Shown in pieces: positions 5,112-16,000 of a DNA stretch of 32,000 nt. The notes beneath the pieces were generated by a model that saw only the letters and a program-made list of their open reading frames with translations, did no database searches and was not told the DNA's origin. Position 1 is the first letter of the stretch. Every line of letters begins with the position of its first letter. The translations under genes were made by a program, and so were the position numbers. Source of the DNA: Nitrososphaeria archaeon (GTDB taxonomy: Archaea > Thermoproteota > Nitrososphaeria > Geothermarchaeales > JDFR-13); assembly GCA_027078545.1 (NCBI GenBank), contig JALWXN010000004.1, positions 705,100-737,099 on the forward strand, read 5' to 3'.

Positions 5112-5210
5112 CATAGAGAAGCGCTATATCGCCGATTTCAATACTTAATTATAAGTAGGTCGTATATACGAATCGGTATATTGGCCTAATAACATAATTT
5201 ATATTTTTCA

Positions 5211-5771
5211 ATGAGGACGAGTAGAGCCATCATACTTTTGGCGCTGTTGACGCTCTTAGCACTGGTAGGTACTGCGGTCTTCGTCTACCTACCAGTGAAC
5301 GTCACCATCAATTCCGTAGGCCCACCAGTGATATTCCAGGCCGGTTCCAACGCTGGTGGAACTGATCTGGGCGGCAACACAATTCAAGTGACACTTGGGC
5401 CAAACTCGTCTAGTGCAACGATAGTTCTCCACCCAACGTATCAGAAGACATATTACCACGATATACTCCAGGTCTCTAACCCATCTCCCCCGGCTGGTGA
5501 CAACTACTACATAGGTATAAAGGTAGTATCACCCCTCACTGGAGCCGCCTTCTCATCAGCCGTTGCTAGGGTCTACGACTCTGCGAACAACCTCTTATTC
5601 ACAGCGGACCTGAAGACAGCTGGTACATATGGCTGGGCCACGCTTCTCCCAGATGGCCAGACATTCAGGATAGATATAGAGATAGTTATTACTGAGGGTG
5701 TCCCACTACCCAGCGGGTCGGTGACGTTCGAGCTAGTCTACAGCCCGCAGAGCGTGACGCCGCCACCGTAG
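5211..5771 (+). CDS. Secreted Cys-free beta-rich protein; candidate major subunit of a SipW-dependent (TasA/ABP/thread/cannula-like) filament
   Basis: N-terminal signal (RAIILLALLTLLALVGTA). The mature start VFVYLPVNVTINSVGPPV and the block VTLGPNSSSATI are shared with the next ORF. It has 2 N-x-S/T sequons and lies in an apparent operon with a signal peptidase I. The fold and family are not verified. Confidence 0.55.
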   Translation: MRTSRAIILLALLTLLALVGTAVFVYLPVNVTINSVGPPVIFQAGSNAGGTDLGGNTIQVTLGPNSSSATIVLHPTYQKTYYHDILQVSNPSPPAGDNYYIGIKVVSPLTGAAFSSAVARVYDSANNLLFTADLKTAGTYGWATLLPDGQTFRIDIEIVITEGVPLPSGSVTFELVYSPQSVTPPP

Positions 5772-5776
5772 TAGCG

Positions 5777-6985
5777 ATGCTCTCCAGGATAGTGGCTATA
5801 CCCCTCATACCAATACTTTTTTTCATACCATATGTCCTGGGTGCAGAGTTTAGCTACTATCCTACATCCCTCACCCTTAATTCCGTCTCTCCCCCCATAT
5901 CACTGTATGATCCTGGGGTGTCGGGGGTAACGGTCTCCCTAGGGCCTAACTCGACTAGTGCCTCTATAACTGTTAAGGCTAGCGCACAGCCCTTCGATAT
6001 AGTGGCTAATAGCGACTTTATAGGGCCTAGCCCCTGGCTATTCATCCCAGGCACGGACCTGATTAGTGCCACGGTTCTCCCGAGCTACTTAGGTAGGGTG
6101 GGTGTTGCTAATGTCTCTGGATCAGGTTCTCTCTTCACGGGATATACGGACTCGGCGTTCCTCTATCAGCAGATTACTTGGCCGACGACGCCTATCCTAT
6201 TCGCCAATGTATATCTCGAGGCCTGTGTAGAGTATGCAGTGACCTCGGGCTTCTCAATACTTCTCCTCGACGCCACCGTATTCGTGGTTGATGCCAATAC
6301 GTTGGCCGTGGTAGACTCGATAACCTTCATCCTAGACGTAGGATCATCATCCACCTGTACATGGAACACCTATACTGGTGGCCTGAACGTGGGTGCTTAT
6401 ACCCCTGGTGGGACGTACTACTTCCTTATCAGGTATAGGGTGCAGAGCCTCTTTACACTCTTCGGTGGCTCGTACTATGCCAGGTTCTATACCGATCTGG
6501 CGAACATCACGGTTGCACCGGCTAACCCCACCTTCCTAGGTATATTCCTACTTGCCAATGCGTCTACAGGTATTTATAACGCCTCGCTGAGCCTCGTATC
6601 AGCCAGCTTCACCGGCACCGTGGATGCCAATATATGGCTGAGGAACAATACGGTCCAGGTCCAGTCCAGCTCGATCACTATATCGGCCTCCACGATAGTC
6701 ACCAGCCAGACATCAGAGCTCATCGTTACAACGGTTCCACCTGGATATTATAGTCTCGAGATGTGGCTGGACACCACGATCTCGCCTGGTGCCTCGGCCA
6801 CCCTAAACCTGGTCCTCAAGTATAGGATTCAGGACGGTGTTTATGTCGAGTACCCCATCCTGCTCAATATTGTTGACCCTCCCGATAGGGGTGGCCAGCC
6901 TAGTGAACCCCCTGATAAGATCTTCAAGATCTTATCTATTGATCCGCCCCCATATATTGAGTTCTTGAGGAGCTATGATCCGTAG
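5777..6985 (+). CDS. Secreted, sequon-rich beta-rich protein; candidate minor/tip or anchor subunit paralogous at its N-terminus to the 5211 product
   Basis: Signal peptide (IVAIPLIPILFFIPYVLGA). The blocks EFSYYPTSLTLNSVSPPI and VSLGPNSTSASI match the upstream protein. It has 6 N-x-S/T sequons and V/T/S/Y-rich composition. It starts 6 nt after a double stop (tagtag) and overlaps the signal peptidase gene by 11 nt. Confidence 0.55.
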   Translation: MLSRIVAIPLIPILFFIPYVLGAEFSYYPTSLTLNSVSPPISLYDPGVSGVTVSLGPNSTSASITVKASAQPFDIVANSDFIGPSPWLFIPGTDLISATVLPSYLGRVGVANVSGSGSLFTGYTDSAFLYQQITWPTTPILFANVYLEACVEYAVTSGFSILLLDATVFVVDANTLAVVDSITFILDVGSSSTCTWNTYTGGLNVGAYTPGGTYYFLIRYRVQSLFTLFGGSYYARFYTDLANITVAPANPTFLGIFLLANASTGIYNASLSLVSASFTGTVDANIWLRNNTVQVQSSSITISASTIVTSQTSELIVTTVPPGYYSLEMWLDTTISPGASATLNLVLKYRIQDGVYVEYPILLNIVDPPDRGGQPSEPPDKIFKILSIDPPPYIEFLRSYDP

Positions 6986-7388
6986 GCCGGGGCCCACGAC
7001 ACTTATCGTACTAGTATTCGCCATACTGGTTCTCGGACGCTTCGTGGGTAGCCCGGTTGCAGCTGTGGTGATTGTTGGGCCCTCTATGGAGCCTACCCTG
7101 AACGTGGGTGACCTGGTCATTCTCCGCTGGGCCGATCCGGAGGTTGGGGATATAGTCCTCTGGTGTAACACCCTGATGAACTGTGTTCTACACCGTGTTG
7201 TTGAGGTGGGCAAGGACTATATAGTTACGAGGGGAGACGCCAACGACATCAATGACCCTCCCGTCCTGAGGGAGCAGGTTAGATATGAGGCCCTACTATC
7301 GATACCCAGGTATCTATGGATACCCGGCCTAGCCATACTGGTTATAGGTGCACATCTATATGAGAAGAGGAAGGAGGGGGGCGATTAA
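6975..7388 (+). CDS. Signal peptidase I, archaeal/ER Sec11-SipW type (S26B)
   Basis: N-terminal TM, Ser box GPSMEPTL, His box VLHRVV, box E TRGDANDINDP and a C-terminal TM (YLWIPGLAILVIGAHLY). Confidence 0.85.
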   Translation: MIRRPGPTTLIVLVFAILVLGRFVGSPVAAVVIVGPSMEPTLNVGDLVILRWADPEVGDIVLWCNTLMNCVLHRVVEVGKDYIVTRGDANDINDPPVLREQVRYEALLSIPRYLWIPGLAILVIGAHLYEKRKEGGD

Positions 7389-8127
7389 GGGGCTCGTAGC
7401 TGGCGGCCTAGGCCTATGGCTCTACAGCTTTTACGAGCCAGTCCTAAGGATAGAGTTAGTGAGGCATAGGATTGACCTTGACCTGGGGCTGGAGATCCTC
7501 TTCGTGACTGACACCCATCTCCACGGTGTCCCGGGTAGGGAGGATAGCGTCATAAAGCTTGTTGAGGATCTCTCTAGGGAGGTAGACCTCACGATACTGG
7601 GGGGAGACATGTATGACGAGTTCTCGGAGAGCCTGGAGAGCTTCTCATCCCTCCTAGATGCGATAAGTGGCGAGGCTATCATGGTTCTCGGTAACCATGA
7701 ACACTGGGCTGCCGATAGGTATCCCCTCGAAGAGACTATAGAGATGGCTGAGTCGAGAGGCGTGACTGTGCTTAGGAACGGGGTGGTGGAGTATAAAGGT
7801 CTCCATATCGGAGGGGTAGACTGGTATGGTGATAACCCGCAGCTGGCGAGGAGGTACTACAGGGACGTTGGGAGTGTAGATATCCTGGTATCCCACACAC
7901 CCGACATACTTGGTGATGCGGAGGTCGATGCACGCCTCGTATTGGCTGGCCATACGCATGGTGGCCAGATACTGGGTCCACTTGGGCTGATAACGAATAG
8001 TAGGCATGGCTATGTAAGCGGCTTCTATAGGAGGGGTGAGGCCCTGATGTATGTCTCTAGGGGGGCTGGGGAGATTATTCCCTTCCGCCTATTGACGCCC
8101 CGGGAGGTCACATTACTAAGCGTCTAG
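7348..8127 (+). CDS. Membrane-anchored calcineurin-like metallophosphoesterase
   Basis: Motifs FVTDTHLH (DxH), GGDMYDE (GD), GNHEHW (GNHE), SHTPD and AGHTHGGQ (GHxH), plus one N-terminal TM. ATG 7360 is an alternative start. It overlaps the 3' end of the peptidase gene. Confidence 0.85.
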   Translation: MHIYMRRGRRGAIKGLVAGGLGLWLYSFYEPVLRIELVRHRIDLDLGLEILFVTDTHLHGVPGREDSVIKLVEDLSREVDLTILGGDMYDEFSESLESFSSLLDAISGEAIMVLGNHEHWAADRYPLEETIEMAESRGVTVLRNGVVEYKGLHIGGVDWYGDNPQLARRYYRDVGSVDILVSHTPDILGDAEVDARLVLAGHTHGGQILGPLGLITNSRHGYVSGFYRRGEALMYVSRGAGEIIPFRLLTPREVTLLSV

Positions 8128-9982: not shown

Positions 9983-11155
9983 TTGAACACCCCATTGGAT
10001 GAGGTGTCGCCGGTGGCCGATGTCGGTATAATAGGGGTTGGGACGACCCAGTTCCGTCCCGAGACCCGTGAGAAGCTGTTCAAGGAGCTTATGTACGAGG
10101 CTGCCTACCGAGCCTATCTCGAGGCGGGTGTCGATCCTAGGCGTGACATAGATGCCTTCATAACGGCCTCTGAAGACCTCTGGGAGGGCCTGGCAATATT
10201 CGATGAGTATGTCCCAGACCAGCTGGGCGGAGTATTGAAACCGGTCTTCACTGTGGGTGGGGACGGTATACATGGGCTTATCCATGGATACATGCTCATA
10301 AAGACAGGTAGGTTCGACGTCGTGGCCGTGGAGGCGCATAGTAAGGCCAGCGAGATAGAGAATATCAAGAAGGTGGTTAGGTTCGCCCTCGACCCGATAT
10401 ATCTACGCCCAGTCATCGAGGATGTCGACGTCCTAGCGGGGCTGGAGATGGCTGCCTCCCTAGGCTGCTACGGCATAGACATGGATACTGTGAACGAGGT
10501 GATACTGAAGAACCACTTCAACGGATCCTTCAACTCGGCTCCCTATGCCCAGAACCTCGACGAGAACAGCTTCGAGACCCCTGAATACCTTGCCGAGCCG
10601 CTGAGGGCACTGGACGTGGCTCAATACGTCGATGGAGGAGTGGTCATCGTCCTAGCCTCCAAGGAGTACATCTCGAGGGAGGGATTGGAGCCCGTATGGA
10701 TAGAGGGTGTAGGCTGGGCTACACAGGGTGGACGCTTCGAACGCTTCCTAGACATGCCCGGCGAGGGCTTGGCTGCAGCTGCTAGGATGGCCTACGACAT
10801 GGCTGGCGTCTCGAGGCCTAGGAGGTATTTCGACCTGGCAGAGGTGGACGACAGGTTCAGCTTTAGGGAGCCTGTATCACTGATAGCCCTCGGCCTAGCC
10901 AGTGGAGACGTCAACCTGGACTATGCGGACAGGATTTTCGATATGGATGGGGAGCTCCCAGTGAACGTCTCCGGCGGGTTCCTCGCAAATGGGTATCCAC
11001 TAGAGGCGGGAGGCCTTATGAAGCTTGTCTACGCAGCTAGGCAGATATGGGGCGAGGCCGGGCCCAACCAGCTCGACGATGTGGAGAAGGCGTTGGTGGC
11101 GACTAGGAGGGAGATACCCTCAACCACATATGGGGTAGTAGTCCTATCGGGGTGA
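9983..11155 (+). CDS. Thiolase-fold (SCP2-thiolase-like) protein lacking canonical catalytic residues
   Basis: N-terminal VGIIGVGTTQF and C-terminal DLAEVDDRFSF...PVNVSGGFLANGYPLEAGG follow the thiolase layout. The nucleophile elbow reads TVGGDG (no Cys), HDCF reads VDDRF and GHP reads GYP. The start is uncertain (TTG 9983, or GTG 10004/10013). Confidence 0.8.
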   Translation: MNTPLDEVSPVADVGIIGVGTTQFRPETREKLFKELMYEAAYRAYLEAGVDPRRDIDAFITASEDLWEGLAIFDEYVPDQLGGVLKPVFTVGGDGIHGLIHGYMLIKTGRFDVVAVEAHSKASEIENIKKVVRFALDPIYLRPVIEDVDVLAGLEMAASLGCYGIDMDTVNEVILKNHFNGSFNSAPYAQNLDENSFETPEYLAEPLRALDVAQYVDGGVVIVLASKEYISREGLEPVWIEGVGWATQGGRFERFLDMPGEGLAAAARMAYDMAGVSRPRRYFDLAEVDDRFSFREPVSLIALGLASGDVNLDYADRIFDMDGELPVNVSGGFLANGYPLEAGGLMKLVYAARQIWGEAGPNQLDDVEKALVATRREIPSTTYGVVVLSG

Positions 11156-12339
11156 TCAATATGAAGATGAATATCTATAGGAAGAACCGTGTCGCGTGTG
11201 TTGGGGCCGGGCTAACCCTCTTCAGGCGTAGGCTGATGGAGACGAGCGACGAGCTCATGTGGCTAGCCGCTAGACAGGCGCTCGACGAGGCAGGCCTAAC
11301 CATAGAGGATATAGACTGCATAATATTCGGGACAGCCCCGGACAACTTCGACGGCATCCATATGCAGAGCGAGGCCCTTGCTGATGGGGCAGGAGCCGTG
11401 AATAAGCCCTATACAAGGGTCTATGTAGGTGGTGGTACAGGGGTCTTCAGCGTTATAGCCGGGTGGTGGCACGTGGCCTCTGGACTGTGTGACAGGGTGC
11501 TCGTCATAGCGGAGGAGAAGATGAGCCATGTACAGCCCCATCCCCAGTACCTCTTCCACCACATCTTCGACCCCGTGACTGAGAAGCCCCTGGGCGTCAA
11601 CCTGATATGGATCTTCGCCCTGGAGATGCATCGATACATGTATAAATACGGCATCAAGAAGGAGGACATCGCCCTCGTCTCGGTGAAGAATAAGAGGAAC
11701 GCGTTGGACCATCCATCCGCCCAGGTGGCTGCGAAGATAACTGTGGAGGACGTCCTCAACAGCGAGGTACTGGTATGGCCCGTCCAGAGGCTCGACATCT
11801 CACCCGTCTCAGACGGTGCTGGGGCCCTCGTGCTTGTCAGTGAGTCGGAGGCTAAGAAGCTTACCGACGAGCCTATATGGATCGACGGCGTAGGGTGGAG
11901 CCTCGACACGATGTACTGGACAAATAGGGACCTGGCATTCCCCGTCTACCTATACTACGCAGGTAAGATGGCCTATGAGATGGCGGGGATCGAGAACCCG
12001 AGGAAGGAGATAGACTTCGCAGAGGTCTACGACCCCTTCGACTATAAGGAGCTCCACCACATGGAGGGTCTACAGCTTGCTAGGAAGGGTGAGGCGCCTA
12101 TACTAACTAGGGAGGGAGTCACCGAGCGGGATGGAGACCTCCCGATAAACCCGAGCGGAGGCCTACTAGGCGTGGGGAACCCGATCGCTGCAGCCGGGAT
12201 AATGAAGGTGGCCGAGGTCTACTGGCAGCTGAGAGGAATGGCGGGTAAGAGGCAGGTCAAGAAGGATGTGGTCACCGGCCTGGCCCAGGCCTGGGGAGAC
12301 CTTATGCAGGTGGGCACAGTCGTGGTTATGAGGAGGTGA
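11152..12339 (+). CDS. Thiolase-fold (SCP2-thiolase-like) protein, second paralog, also lacking canonical catalytic residues
   Basis: VACVGAGLTLF, VLVIAEEKMS and DFAEVYDPFDY...PINPSGGLLGVGNPIAAAG. The nucleophile position reads VGGGTG, HDCF reads VYDPF and GHP reads GNP. GTGA overlap with the upstream stop; ATG 11161/11167 are alternative starts. Confidence 0.8.
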   Translation: MINMKMNIYRKNRVACVGAGLTLFRRRLMETSDELMWLAARQALDEAGLTIEDIDCIIFGTAPDNFDGIHMQSEALADGAGAVNKPYTRVYVGGGTGVFSVIAGWWHVASGLCDRVLVIAEEKMSHVQPHPQYLFHHIFDPVTEKPLGVNLIWIFALEMHRYMYKYGIKKEDIALVSVKNKRNALDHPSAQVAAKITVEDVLNSEVLVWPVQRLDISPVSDGAGALVLVSESEAKKLTDEPIWIDGVGWSLDTMYWTNRDLAFPVYLYYAGKMAYEMAGIENPRKEIDFAEVYDPFDYKELHHMEGLQLARKGEAPILTREGVTERDGDLPINPSGGLLGVGNPIAAAGIMKVAEVYWQLRGMAGKRQVKKDVVTGLAQAWGDLMQVGTVVVMRR

Positions 12340-12344
12340 GCCGG

Positions 12345-12872
12345 ATGGATACTAGGCCTAAGAACCCGGAGGGAACCCCATATAGGATGGAGGATCTGAG
12401 GAGTGGGGCCATACCATATACCGAGGATAGTCTAGAGGCATGGTACCGCTGGAGCCTGGGGAAATATCTAGGCAAGTATCTAGAGGGGCTTAGGGAGGGT
12501 AAGATCTATGGTAGGAGGTGTAACAACTGTGAGAGGATCTATGTCCCGCCTAGAGAGGTGTGCCACCACTGCTTCCGCACCACCGATGAGTGGGTGGAGG
12601 TCGGTGATACTGGGAGGGTTAACACAGCCGTGGTTAGCTATATATCCGCTGATAGGGGTAGGGTGGAGGAGCCCATAATAATTGCGGTTATAGAGCTGGA
12701 GGGAGCCTCGCCAGGGATCGGCATCCTACATAGGCTTGGAAACGTGTCCCCCGAGGACGTGAAGAGTATGAAGATATTCGGTAAGAGGGTAAGAGCAGTT
12801 TGGAAGCCTCCTGAGGAGAGGACTGGCTCGGTAAACGATATCCTATACTTCGAGCCTATCGAGGAGGTGTAG
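12345..12872 (+). CDS. DUF35-family protein (rubredoxin-like zinc ribbon + OB fold), thiolase-associated
   Basis: Zinc ribbon CNNCERIYVPPREVCHHC followed by an OB-like segment (GRVNTAVVSYI). ATG 12345 is preceded by GGAGGTGA at a 7-nt spacing. The ORF track opens at GTG 12336, overlapping the upstream stop. Confidence 0.8.
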   Translation: MDTRPKNPEGTPYRMEDLRSGAIPYTEDSLEAWYRWSLGKYLGKYLEGLREGKIYGRRCNNCERIYVPPREVCHHCFRTTDEWVEVGDTGRVNTAVVSYISADRGRVEEPIIIAVIELEGASPGIGILHRLGNVSPEDVKSMKIFGKRVRAVWKPPEERTGSVNDILYFEPIEEV

Positions 12873-12876
12873 GGGT

Positions 12877-13293
12877 ATGGAGTATAGGTTTAAGGTGGAT
12901 GTCCCCGGCTATATCTACCCCACGGGGAGGGCTGGAAAGATATTCGCCGAGAACATTAAGAAGGGCGTAGTAGTAGCGTCTCGCTGTGACGAGTGTAGGG
13001 TGTACTTCCTACCCCCAACAGCCTACTGCCCACACTGCTTCAACGAGCTCAGGAACTATACCCCGGTGGAGACATTCATACTGGTCGCCAAGACGGTCCT
13101 GGAAAAGGGTGTTGAGAAGGTCGCCTATGGATATGTCAAGGGGATTATAGGTGGTGAGGAGACCCAGGGAGGCTTCATACACAGGGTCGACCCCGACGCC
13201 GAGCCGGGAGAGGTTTTGAAACCCGTTCTGAAGCCCGAGGAGGAGCGCCGGGGGATCATTACAGATATAGAGTTCTTCGCCAAGGCGGACTAG
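12877..13293 (+). CDS. DUF35-family protein (zinc ribbon + OB fold), second copy
   Basis: Zinc ribbon CDECRVYFLPPTAYCPHC. A GGAGGTG Shine-Dalgarno sequence lies upstream of ATG 12877. This is the last gene of the four-gene operon. Confidence 0.8.
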   Translation: MEYRFKVDVPGYIYPTGRAGKIFAENIKKGVVVASRCDECRVYFLPPTAYCPHCFNELRNYTPVETFILVAKTVLEKGVEKVAYGYVKGIIGGEETQGGFIHRVDPDAEPGEVLKPVLKPEEERRGIITDIEFFAKAD

Positions 13294-14620: not shown

Positions 14621-16000
14621 ATGGGAAGCCTGATTGAAATATCTCCTAGCCAGAACACCACCTACATGGATAGCCTCAAGAGGGGGATAGAGTCCTTCCT
14701 CCTCGAGAAGCTGGGTGGTAGGCCTCCAAGCGCCAGCTACACAGTCGTATGGAGGGATGGAGAGACTCTACGAGGGGCTGTTGGCTATAGGGATGTGGAG
14801 GAGGGGCTCCCGGCGACGCCTGAGACGCTATACGGGGTGGGTAGTATAACGAAGACCTTCACCGCCTTAACAGTACTCATGCTCCAGAGGGAGGGCCTAC
14901 TATCGCTCGACGACCCCATATCACGATACGTACCCATCGATATGGAGATCGGGGGTGAGGAGGTTAGGATATGGCACCTCCTAAGCCACACCTCTGGGGT
15001 AGCCGCACTGGCCTATGCGGAGAGCCTGCTGAGGGGCTATGTAGGTGAGTCGCCCAGCTACCTACCCATCTCGGGGCCGGAGGACATACTCTCCTTTATG
15101 GAGGGGTGGAGGGACTGGGCCATCGCATGGCCTGGTGAGAAGTACTTCTACCTTAACGAGGGGTTCGTCCTCGTGGGTATGGCCATCGAGAAGGCGACTG
15201 GGATGAAGTATGAGGATGCCCTCAGGAAGTATGTCCTGGAAAGGCTGGGCATGAGTAGCACAACTGTTGGTAGGCCTATAGACATGGGTATGATGGCGAC
15301 GCCCTACGTGGTCGGTAAAGAGGGTTTGAGGAGGGCTAGGGTCCCACCCCTAGGGGCAGATGGAGGGATGATAACAAATGCAGTTGACATGTCACGCTTC
15401 CTAATGGCTATGCTCAACAGGGGTGGCGACGCCCTTCCCAGAGAGGTTGTCGATGAGCTTGAGAAGCCAAGGATAAGGACCTCCCTACTCAATAGGGAGG
15501 AGTATTACTGCCTAGGCCTATCAAAGACCGTCGTGGGTGGGCTGGAGCTGTATGGGCATAGCGGCTCAGTCCTGGTCTACACGGCCTACATGGCCTACAA
15601 CAGGGAGGAGGGCGTCGGCGTCGCCGTCATGTCGAACGGGACTGGCTACCCAATGTCTAGCGCCGGGCTATACATACTGGCCAGGGCCCTAGGCAGGAAC
15701 CCGCTAGAGTTCGAGCCACTCCTCATCGACGAGGCTCTGAACAGCCTGGTAGGCACCTATGAGAGCTTCAAGGGCGGCTTCAGAGCCAGGGTTGAGAGGA
15801 TGGGTGGTATACTCATAATCAAGTATAGTGGGAGGAGCTACGAGGTCTCAATACCCCTGATTCCAAGGGATCTCTCAGGGGACGAGAAGATCTTCGAGGC
15901 TATAAATGGTGACCGGCGCTACGAGGCGGTCTTCTACAAGCGGGACGGTGAGCTGTATCTACAGGTTGAGAGGTATCTATTCCGGAGAGTCCCTGCTTGA
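14621..16000 (+). CDS. Beta-lactamase-fold serine hydrolase / S12 peptidase with beta-rich C-terminal domain (Pab87/CubicO-like)
   Basis: SxxK (SITKTF), YxN (YLNEG) and H-x-G (GHSGS) motifs. The ~100-aa beta-rich C-terminal extension and the size are consistent with archaeal S12 self-compartmentalising peptidases. That subfamily assignment is from memory and unverified. Confidence 0.8.
   Translation: MGSLIEISPSQNTTYMDSLKRGIESFLLEKLGGRPPSASYTVVWRDGETLRGAVGYRDVEEGLPATPETLYGVGSITKTFTALTVLMLQREGLLSLDDPISRYVPIDMEIGGEEVRIWHLLSHTSGVAALAYAESLLRGYVGESPSYLPISGPEDILSFMEGWRDWAIAWPGEKYFYLNEGFVLVGMAIEKATGMKYEDALRKYVLERLGMSSTTVGRPIDMGMMATPYVVGKEGLRRARVPPLGADGGMITNAVDMSRFLMAMLNRGGDALPREVVDELEKPRIRTSLLNREEYYCLGLSKTVVGGLELYGHSGSVLVYTAYMAYNREEGVGVAVMSNGTGYPMSSAGLYILARALGRNPLEFEPLLIDEALNSLVGTYESFKGGFRARVERMGGILIIKYSGRSYEVSIPLIPRDLSGDEKIFEAINGDRRYEAVFYKRDGELYLQVERYLFRRVPA

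Follow-up and report, generated by a model that had tools for sequence, protein, structure and literature searches.

A probable thread-type surface filament locus with a linked signal peptidase in a Geothermarchaeales archaeon

Background

Two genes for secreted proteins that begin alike once their signal sequences are passed, followed at once by the gene of a signal peptidase, raise the question of what structure their products form and why a processing enzyme should be encoded beside them. Such a group of genes lies at positions 5211-7388 of a stretch of 32,000 nucleotides (the window) from a Nitrososphaeria archaeon of the Geothermarchaeales [GenBank: GCA_027078545.1, contig JALWXN010000004.1, positions 705,100 to 737,099 of the forward strand]. 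An earlier inspection of the sequence, made without database searches (the sequence-only reading), had proposed a filament, possibly of an undescribed type, whose subunits are held together by an N-terminal donor strand. In this work we have followed up this proposal by computational analysis and conclude that the locus probably encodes a thread-type surface filament built by donor-strand complementation, a member of the TasA superfamily closest to the Saci_0406 thread of Sulfolobus acidocaldarius.

The archaeal TasA superfamily comprises the TasA/AbpX, CanX, AbpA and 0406-thread families, and thread homologues have been found mainly in Thermoproteota (PMC12518558). The structure of the thread has been solved in one organism and its assembly pathway has been described as unknown (PMC9715654, PMC11607397); the accessory genes of the Sulfolobus thread have been called elusive (PMC11607397). 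In the structure determined by cryo-electron microscopy (cryo-EM) the DVIYYYQGQITVGNVAPPMYF segment of Saci_0406 forms the N-terminal tail, which reaches into the subunits that follow, a covalent link has been proposed between the alpha-amine of Asp24 and Asn57 two subunits away, and the family assembles independently of PibD (PMC9715654).

Results

Organization of the locus and the shared start of the two secreted proteins

Open reading frames (ORFs) were called on the sequence of the 32-kb window, a single stretch of one contig. Three of them are tightly packed on the + strand: 5211-5771 (186 amino acids, aa; the small protein), 5777-6985 (402 aa; the large protein) and 6975-7388 (137 aa; the peptidase). 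The first two genes are separated by 5 nucleotides (nt) and the last two overlap by 11 nt. The AT-rich intergenic region in front of them (5112-5210, +), with TATA-like runs GTATATTG and TTTATAT, is a likely archaeal promoter as judged by reading the sequence.

Each of the two secreted products opens with a short basic n-region, and some 15 hydrophobic residues follow (MRTSR-AIILLALLTLLALVGTA in the small protein, MLSR-IVAIPLIPILFFIPYVLGA in the large one). Two blocks are then shared, F24-VYLPVNVTINSVGPPV and V60-TLGPNSSSATI in the small protein corresponding to F25-SYYPTSLTLNSVSPPI and V53-SLGPNSTSASI in the large protein. This likeness is not due to chance, since the two sequences align in pairwise BLASTP with E 1e-8 (36% identity, 91 residues), their families align in the profile-profile comparison by hhalign with a probability of 98.3% (E 1.6e-14, 68 columns), and the pairing recurs in 26 of 30 loci (see below). 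The small protein carries two N-glycosylation sequons (N30 and N65) and no cysteine, and the large protein carries six sequons. The sequence-only reading had described the hydrophobic signal sequences, the two blocks, the sequon counts, the cysteine-free small protein and the 11-nt overlap in the same way; its 6-nt gap between the first two genes differs trivially from the 5 nt counted here.

The small protein belongs to the thread family

Taken as a single sequence, the small protein matched nothing in Pfam, in NCBIfam (E <= 1; the SipW-cognate signal-peptide model included) or among the sequences of the PDB. A word-indexed search returned 12 close relatives, and a profile search that covered 1.84 billion cluster representatives enlarged the family to 128 or more clusters (50% identity). 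Nearly all members are 175-210 aa long and have one common layout, in which a signal peptide with a small-x-small end is followed by [SA]-VFVYYP, PPV-F, G-x-N-A, HPTYQ-TYY and a C-terminal YSPQ..PP. A Pfam scan of 101 members gave scattered sub-threshold matches of immunoglobulin (Ig)- and fn3-like type alone, with no curated family and no DUF family, and PF12389 (TasA/camelysin, Peptidase_M73) matched neither the small protein nor any of the 101 members at E <= 0.1.

The profile built from these 101 sequences nevertheless found a protein of known structure. In an hmmsearch against PDB sequences it matched 7pnb_A, i.e. Saci_0406, over the full length (1-187 vs 1-199) with 53.9 bits and E 1.9e-13, a value which by our own arithmetic becomes about 2e-9 when rescaled by database size for the library of 1.8 billion sequences. 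The hhalign comparison of the small-protein family with Saci_0406 gave a probability of 98.1% and E 8.3e-14 over 179 columns.

The fold agrees with this assignment. The AlphaFold2 model of the small protein, built from a shallow alignment of 13 sequences, has a predicted local distance difference test score (pLDDT) of 86.8 and shows a beta-sandwich from residue ~41, residues 20-40 being without secondary structure. When the model was compared with the PDB by Foldseek, Saci_0406 (7pnb_A) ranked first (E 4.9e-8, TM-score 0.64/0.65, root mean square deviation 4.2, 188 columns) and the Pyrobaculum bundling pilin AbpA (7ueg) second (E 3.2e-6, TM-score 0.62), followed by the cannula-like tubes 9bab and 9h8b, cannulae and then chaperone-usher pilins. 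The best neighbours are thus all subunits of filaments assembled by donor-strand complementation. Neither the small nor the large protein matched a family of surface layer (S-layer) proteins, solute-binding proteins or enzymes, any of which would have spoken against a filament.

The most conserved residues of the family are G45 and N47 (G45-S46-N47 of the small protein, window 5343-5351), both of which occur in 90% or more of the 101 sequences. They precede by a few residues the loop aligned with Asn57, the isopeptide residue of Saci_0406; the nearly invariant N47 of the G-x-N-A motif lies close to Gly50 and is different from that Asn57.

A type IV pilin with a class III signal peptide was also considered, as R5-A6 could mimic the [KR]-[GA] processing motif. 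It was rejected: the homologues have R-L, R-I or K-T at this place, and the fold and homology of the small protein are those of the thread family. One member of the family differs in architecture from the rest. P0048 (492 aa) consists of a complete small subunit fused to a C-terminal domain of ~300 aa with a WRFDGIDDYL motif, which by eye resembles LamG- or concanavalin-type lectins; this pilin would then carry a putative lectin of its own.

The predicted donor strand

The cleavage sites were read from the sequence (small residues at -3 and -1) and from the alignment, with no dedicated predictor. In the small protein signal peptidase I is predicted to cut between VGT and A or between GTA and V, so that the signal peptide would comprise aa 1-21 or 1-22 (5211-5276, +); this site aligns with the cleavage of Saci_0406 between A23 and D24 in the profile alignment. 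In the large protein the predicted cuts fall between LG and A or between GA and E, just as far from the F-x-Y-x-P motif as in the small protein.

The segment that would be exposed by the cut, aa 22-42 of the small protein (AVFVYLPVNVTINSVGPPVIF; 5274-5336, +), is the predicted donor strand, or tail. The first conserved block corresponds residue for residue, in the profile alignment, to DVIYYYQGQITVGNVAPPMYF, the donor strand of Saci_0406, and because the block is homologous to a donor strand seen by experiment, the assignment proposed in the sequence-only reading is supported. The mature N-terminal half (aa 22-78) is one of the best conserved regions of the family (2.24-2.46 bits vs 1.75 bits for aa 79-176), and both the tail and the C-terminal YSPQ..PP strand are conserved across more than 100 members.

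The signal peptidase

The third gene (6975-7388, +) encodes a signal peptidase I (SPase) of the archaeal/Sec11 type (MEROPS S26B) with two transmembrane (TM) segments. It scores 63.1 bits with TIGR02228, the model of archaeal signal peptidase I (cut-off 51.85), and 29.1 bits with PF10502 (Peptidase_S26; cut-off 22.9), and it aligns with human SEC11A/C over the catalytic region (E 2.9e-4 for SEC11C). The catalytic residues are intact: Ser37 in GPSMEPT (nt 7083-7085), His73 in LHRV (7191-7193) and Asp88 in GDAND (7236-7238), together with Asp94. The three boxes are those from which the sequence-only reading had recognized the enzyme. All four residues are conserved in at least 90% of 36 operon-linked peptidases, and so are C64 and C70 (window 7164-7184), which flank the catalytic His box and may form a disulfide or a metal site specific for this clade. 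With the SipW equivalog model NF046067 the peptidase reached only 22.9 bits (cut-off 190); its role would be SipW-like, and the enzyme itself is not a SipW orthologue.

The large protein

Only six close relatives were found for the large protein (5777-6985, +), and it had no meaningful match in Pfam, in NCBIfam or, as a single sequence, in the PDB. Its homology to the small protein is limited to the signal peptide, the tail and the first strands (to about residue 71), the common module of aa 24-71 corresponding to 5846-5989 (+), and the 8-residue G-S-N-A-G..D-L loop of the small subunit is missing. The AlphaFold2 model (pLDDT 76.6), built from a shallow alignment of only 7 sequences, shows a disordered tail, a beta-jelly-roll of very high confidence (residues ~90-260, pLDDT above 90) and, after it, a further beta domain. 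The jelly-roll (aa ~88-262; 6038-6562, +) appears to be of a carbohydrate-binding module (CBM) or adhesin type, the weak, domain-level Foldseek matches of the core in the PDB being CBM22, CBM16 (2zex, target TM-score 0.53), CBM4, MAM and the adhesin domains of AgI/II, ClfB and CfaE with E from 4e-5 to 1e-3.

A protein that can donate a strand and has no recognizable acceptor head must sit at an end of the filament. That this end is the tip, or the point of nucleation, is favoured by the CBM-like core which replaces a recognizable thread head, and a variable middle part is a trait of the tip components in published loci (10.64898/2026.01.04.697558; PMC12337348). Similar roles as nucleator or tip have been proposed for TapA, AbpB and Saci_0405 (PMC9245690, PMC9715654). 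We favour this role of the large protein, at about an even chance.

Linkage of the three genes in other loci

Metagenome contigs were scanned with a 33-sequence alignment, which gave 80 loci (79 distinct), in which ORFs were called and searched with locally built profiles; linkage was counted in the 30 loci in which 2.5 kb or more of sequence follows the subunit gene. All 30 have a signal peptidase I gene in the same orientation as the subunit gene and no more than 3.5 kb away from it. A paralogue sharing the tail (337-637 aa) lies directly downstream of the subunit gene in 26 of them, and the recurring gene order is small subunit, tail-sharing paralogue, SPase. The subunits of the linked loci are only 33-60% identical to the small protein of the window. 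The suggestion of the sequence-only reading that the peptidase is dedicated to the locus finds its strongest argument in this linkage.

In most other lineages the operon peptidase is longer (356-422 aa) and is followed by a polytopic membrane protein of 180-230 aa. In one such locus (L006, 5924-7385) the catalytic domain is accompanied by extra TM segments and a beta-rich C-terminal domain of ~200 aa, presumably extracellular; long peptidases are encoded likewise in L002 (8593-10204, - strand), L014 (9827-11558) and about 30 other loci. Neither the extra domain nor the membrane protein encoded by the fourth gene matched Pfam, and DUF5305 was not detected in them at E <= 1. The two may constitute a platform for assembly or anchoring. 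A relationship of the C-terminal domain to the head of the subunit, which would have made it a strand-accepting anchor, was considered and was negative in hhalign.

The lineage of the window has a reduced form of this arrangement, in which the peptidase is 137-141 aa long with two TM segments and the membrane protein of the fourth gene is missing. This lineage includes a locus of a Candidatus Geothermarchaeota metagenome-assembled genome, with 95% protein identity, and syntenic contigs.

Neighbouring genes

The gene downstream of the peptidase (7348-8127, +; 41-nt overlap) encodes a metallophosphoesterase (PF00149, E 5.8e-13; YaeI-like) with a signal resembling that of the twin-arginine translocation (Tat) pathway: the start is MRRGRRGAIKG in the window and RRGFLK occurs in L007. 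The arrangement with the peptidase gene is kept in L001, L004, L007 and L089, i.e. within the lineage of the window only, and in other lineages the polytopic membrane protein takes this position. It is doubtful whether the metallophosphoesterase belongs to the filament system.

Elsewhere in the window, two adjacent and mutually dissimilar hydrophobic ORFs of 141 aa each are located at 1036-1876 on the - strand; they had no family assignment above threshold (one had a sub-threshold match to DUF7144), and L004 has three such genes. The regions 9983-13293 (+) and 14621-16000 (+) contain ordinary housekeeping neighbours: by synteny with L004 and L089, a thiolase pair and then two zf-ChsH2/OB (DUF35-type) genes, and also a protein of the Pab87 type, which has a beta-lactamase fold and an octamerisation domain. 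Scans of the window for tRNA genes and with Rfam revealed no features.

Discussion

A thread-type filament and its possible assembly

The homology of the small protein to Saci_0406, its fold and the conservation of its tail together make a thread-type surface filament the probable product of this locus. In the proposed course of events both structural proteins would be exported by Sec, and the Sec11/SipW-type peptidase of the operon would cut each of them just ahead of the (A)VFVY-P...PPV-F segment. The N-terminal strand set free in this way would enter the incomplete beta-sandwich of the adjacent 186-aa subunit, presumably the major one of the filament, and the subunits would polymerise into an N-glycosylated fibre resembling beads on a string. 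The 402-aa protein, which would donate its strand and probably accept none, would be the first subunit at one end, a tip or nucleator that might bind sugars and be adhesive, in a role like those of TapA, AbpB, TafC and the proposed one of Saci_0405. More speculatively, cleavage at the membrane might license strand donation, and the last subunit might anchor the fibre by its uncleaved signal peptide; a three-gene locus that encodes no anchor could therefore suffice.

Several observations weigh against a filament of this kind or against parts of the scheme. The proposed isopeptide pair of Saci_0406 is absent: Asp24 is replaced by Ala22 (Ser or Ala in the family, Val possible) and Asn57 by Gly50, the latter pair being less certain as the loop alignment holds an insertion at this point. 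With a mean information content of 2.24 bits, the tail is only moderately better conserved than the rest of the head (1.98 bits). An obvious membrane anchor is missing from both structural proteins, and the large protein also lacks a TM segment at its C-terminus. Its CBM-like assignment comes from weak Foldseek matches with low TM-scores and from an alignment of 7 sequences. Furthermore, the canonical thread locus, taken from two S. acidocaldarius genomes (L087 and L088) with 8 kb on either side and compared by hmmsearch, six-frame search and hhalign, offers little correspondence beyond the subunit itself. The neighbours of Saci_0406 (131, 442, 276 and 266 aa) were not matched by the profiles of the large protein, the SPase, the SPase C-terminal domain or the membrane protein, and there is no signal peptidase gene within 8 kb, the six-frame search included. 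The sole exception is the 131-aa ORF downstream of Saci_0406, which resembles a thread head and is matched by that part of the subunit profile (3.5e-7). In the same part of L087 (8776-10496) the 442-aa ORF has a signal peptide with a tail-like SVYYFFQ following SA and no profile match to the large protein of the window. The 266-aa membrane protein was considered as a counterpart of the fourth gene of the other loci; the likeness, seen by eye, was not supported by the profile and the candidate was dropped.

Other explanations of the locus have to be weighed against the same data. The filament could be as described, with the 402-aa protein ending or anchoring it on the cell side and joining as the last subunit, as PapH does in chaperone-usher pili. 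A donor tail with no detectable acceptor domain suits either end, depending on polarity, and polarity is open even for the Sulfolobus thread (hypotheses 1 and 2 in PMC9715654). Against this, the protein has neither a C-terminal TM segment nor any other anchor; its central domain is CBM- or adhesin-like, and the partners vary by lineage in size (337 to 637 aa) and in the middle part, as has been published for tip proteins (10.64898/2026.01.04.697558). We consider a terminator unlikely. Doubt about the peptidase has different grounds. Only one SPase gene is present in the 32-kb window, its product passes the general archaeal model TIGR02228, and a generic peptidase has been credited with processing in the archaeal bundling pili (ABP) of Pyrobaculum calidifontis and proposed for the Sulfolobus thread (PMC9245690, PMC9715654), so that a housekeeping enzyme might lie beside the pilin genes with no meaning attached to its position. 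Such an accident is hard to reconcile with same-strand linkage in 30 of 30 loci whose subunits are only 33-60% identical, or with the 11-nt gene overlap; the clade has traits of its own in the two conserved cysteines and the mostly fused extracellular C-terminal domain, and the margin above the TIGR02228 cut-off is small. A housekeeping role is accordingly rated as quite improbable.

The most distant alternative gives up the filament. Both proteins could be monomeric glycoproteins, secreted or associated with the S-layer, and the shared block a recognition or sorting motif for the operon peptidase, as the block abuts the cleavage site and could serve in substrate recognition, and as neither protein belongs to a curated family. 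Against this stand the full-length homology of the small protein, in sequence and in fold, to a subunit whose donor strand has been seen by cryo-EM, and the nature of the top structural neighbours, which are all donor-strand filament subunits with no S-layer, solute-binding or enzyme match among them; we find this explanation very improbable. A bolder extension of the thread-type filament would see in the subunit, the variable tail-sharing partner and the SPase, often fused to a beta domain and accompanied by a membrane protein, the assembly machinery of thread filaments, with the SPase licensing polymerisation. The subunit would stay tethered by its uncleaved signal peptide until cleavage at the membrane frees its donor strand for the next subunit, a chaperone-free, protease-gated strand exchange analogous to that of type V pili, of which the three-gene locus of the window would be the minimal version. 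We put this forward as an improbable model.

Significance

The thread-type homology and the published donor-strand precedents leave no room for the undescribed filament type that the sequence-only reading had thought possible. Operons that join the genes of pilin, tip protein and peptidase have already been described for TasA, Tafi and AbpX, and no new principle is involved. Compared with the Sulfolobus thread the locus has some variant features: on the alignments it lacks the isopeptide residues, it has a peptidase of its own, and its partner shares the tail. No link between thread-family subunits and a peptidase was reported in the literature that we searched.

With this analysis the range of the thread family comes to include a Geothermarchaeota-like lineage. 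The family that it delimits, 128 or more clusters (50% identity), is unannotated, has no Pfam model and would merit a Pfam entry. The linkage of subunit, partner and peptidase offers a compact and testable candidate for the initiation of the fibre and for the relation between processing and strand donation. A branch lacking the proposed isopeptide residues is a natural experiment on the need for the covalent link in a thermostable filament.

Comparison with known filament systems

The closest known system is the S. acidocaldarius thread (Saci_0406, PDB 7PNB/8RZL, arCOG10215 sensu lato; PMC9715654), which combines full-length profile homology with the best structural match. Common to both are a Sec signal peptide cut ahead of a conserved aromatic-rich strand (VFVYLP here, DVIYYY there), the PPV-F motif, a C-terminal [YF]SP...PP end, N-glycosylation sequons and, downstream of the subunit, another gene whose product is related to it; the pairwise identity to Saci_0406, however, is only ~25%.

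The set of genes has the same three kinds of member as Bacillus subtilis tapA-sipW-tasA (PMC9674648, PMC9245690), i.e. a major donor-strand subunit, a presumed nucleating accessory protein and a dedicated Sec11-like peptidase for the processing of both. There is no sequence match to PF12389/TasA, and the gene order is different. The accessory protein of the window has the tail of the major subunit, whereas the fold of TapA is unrelated to that of TasA. P. calidifontis AbpA/AbpB (PDB 7UEG; PMC9245690) offers a parallel for the large protein, as a multi-domain partner of ~400 aa with a signal peptide, a proposed nucleator or adhesin, is encoded directly downstream of the pilin; AbpA itself has no significant match to the small-protein family profile (E 2.2). 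The ABP operon has been described as having no dedicated signal peptidase nearby (PMC9245690), and the AbpX preprint also counts AbpA among the loci with dedicated signal peptidases and tip proteins (10.64898/2026.01.04.697558).

Haloarchaeal Tafi (TafD/TafC) and archaeal AbpX (PMC12337348; 10.64898/2026.01.04.697558) are likewise donor-strand pilus loci, in which a major pilin is encoded together with tip or minor subunits and with a signal peptidase I dedicated to the locus, and their tip proteins vary between lineages as the partners of the window type do. Their pilin families are different and neither is a significant sequence match here. Tafi pilins are often Tat-dependent, unlike the Sec-type proteins of the window; both kinds of loci carry a DUF5305 protein and AbpX a 10-TM SPase, whereas the window has a 2-TM SPase and no detectable DUF5305. 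The Pyrodictium cannulae (CanA/CanX) and the chaperone-usher pilins share with the small protein a jelly-roll or Ig-like subunit completed by the N-terminal strand of a neighbour, but their TM-scores to its model are much lower (0.3-0.44). Cannula loci have been reported without dedicated peptidases (PMC12518558), and chaperone-usher systems require a chaperone and an usher, neither of which is encoded at the locus.

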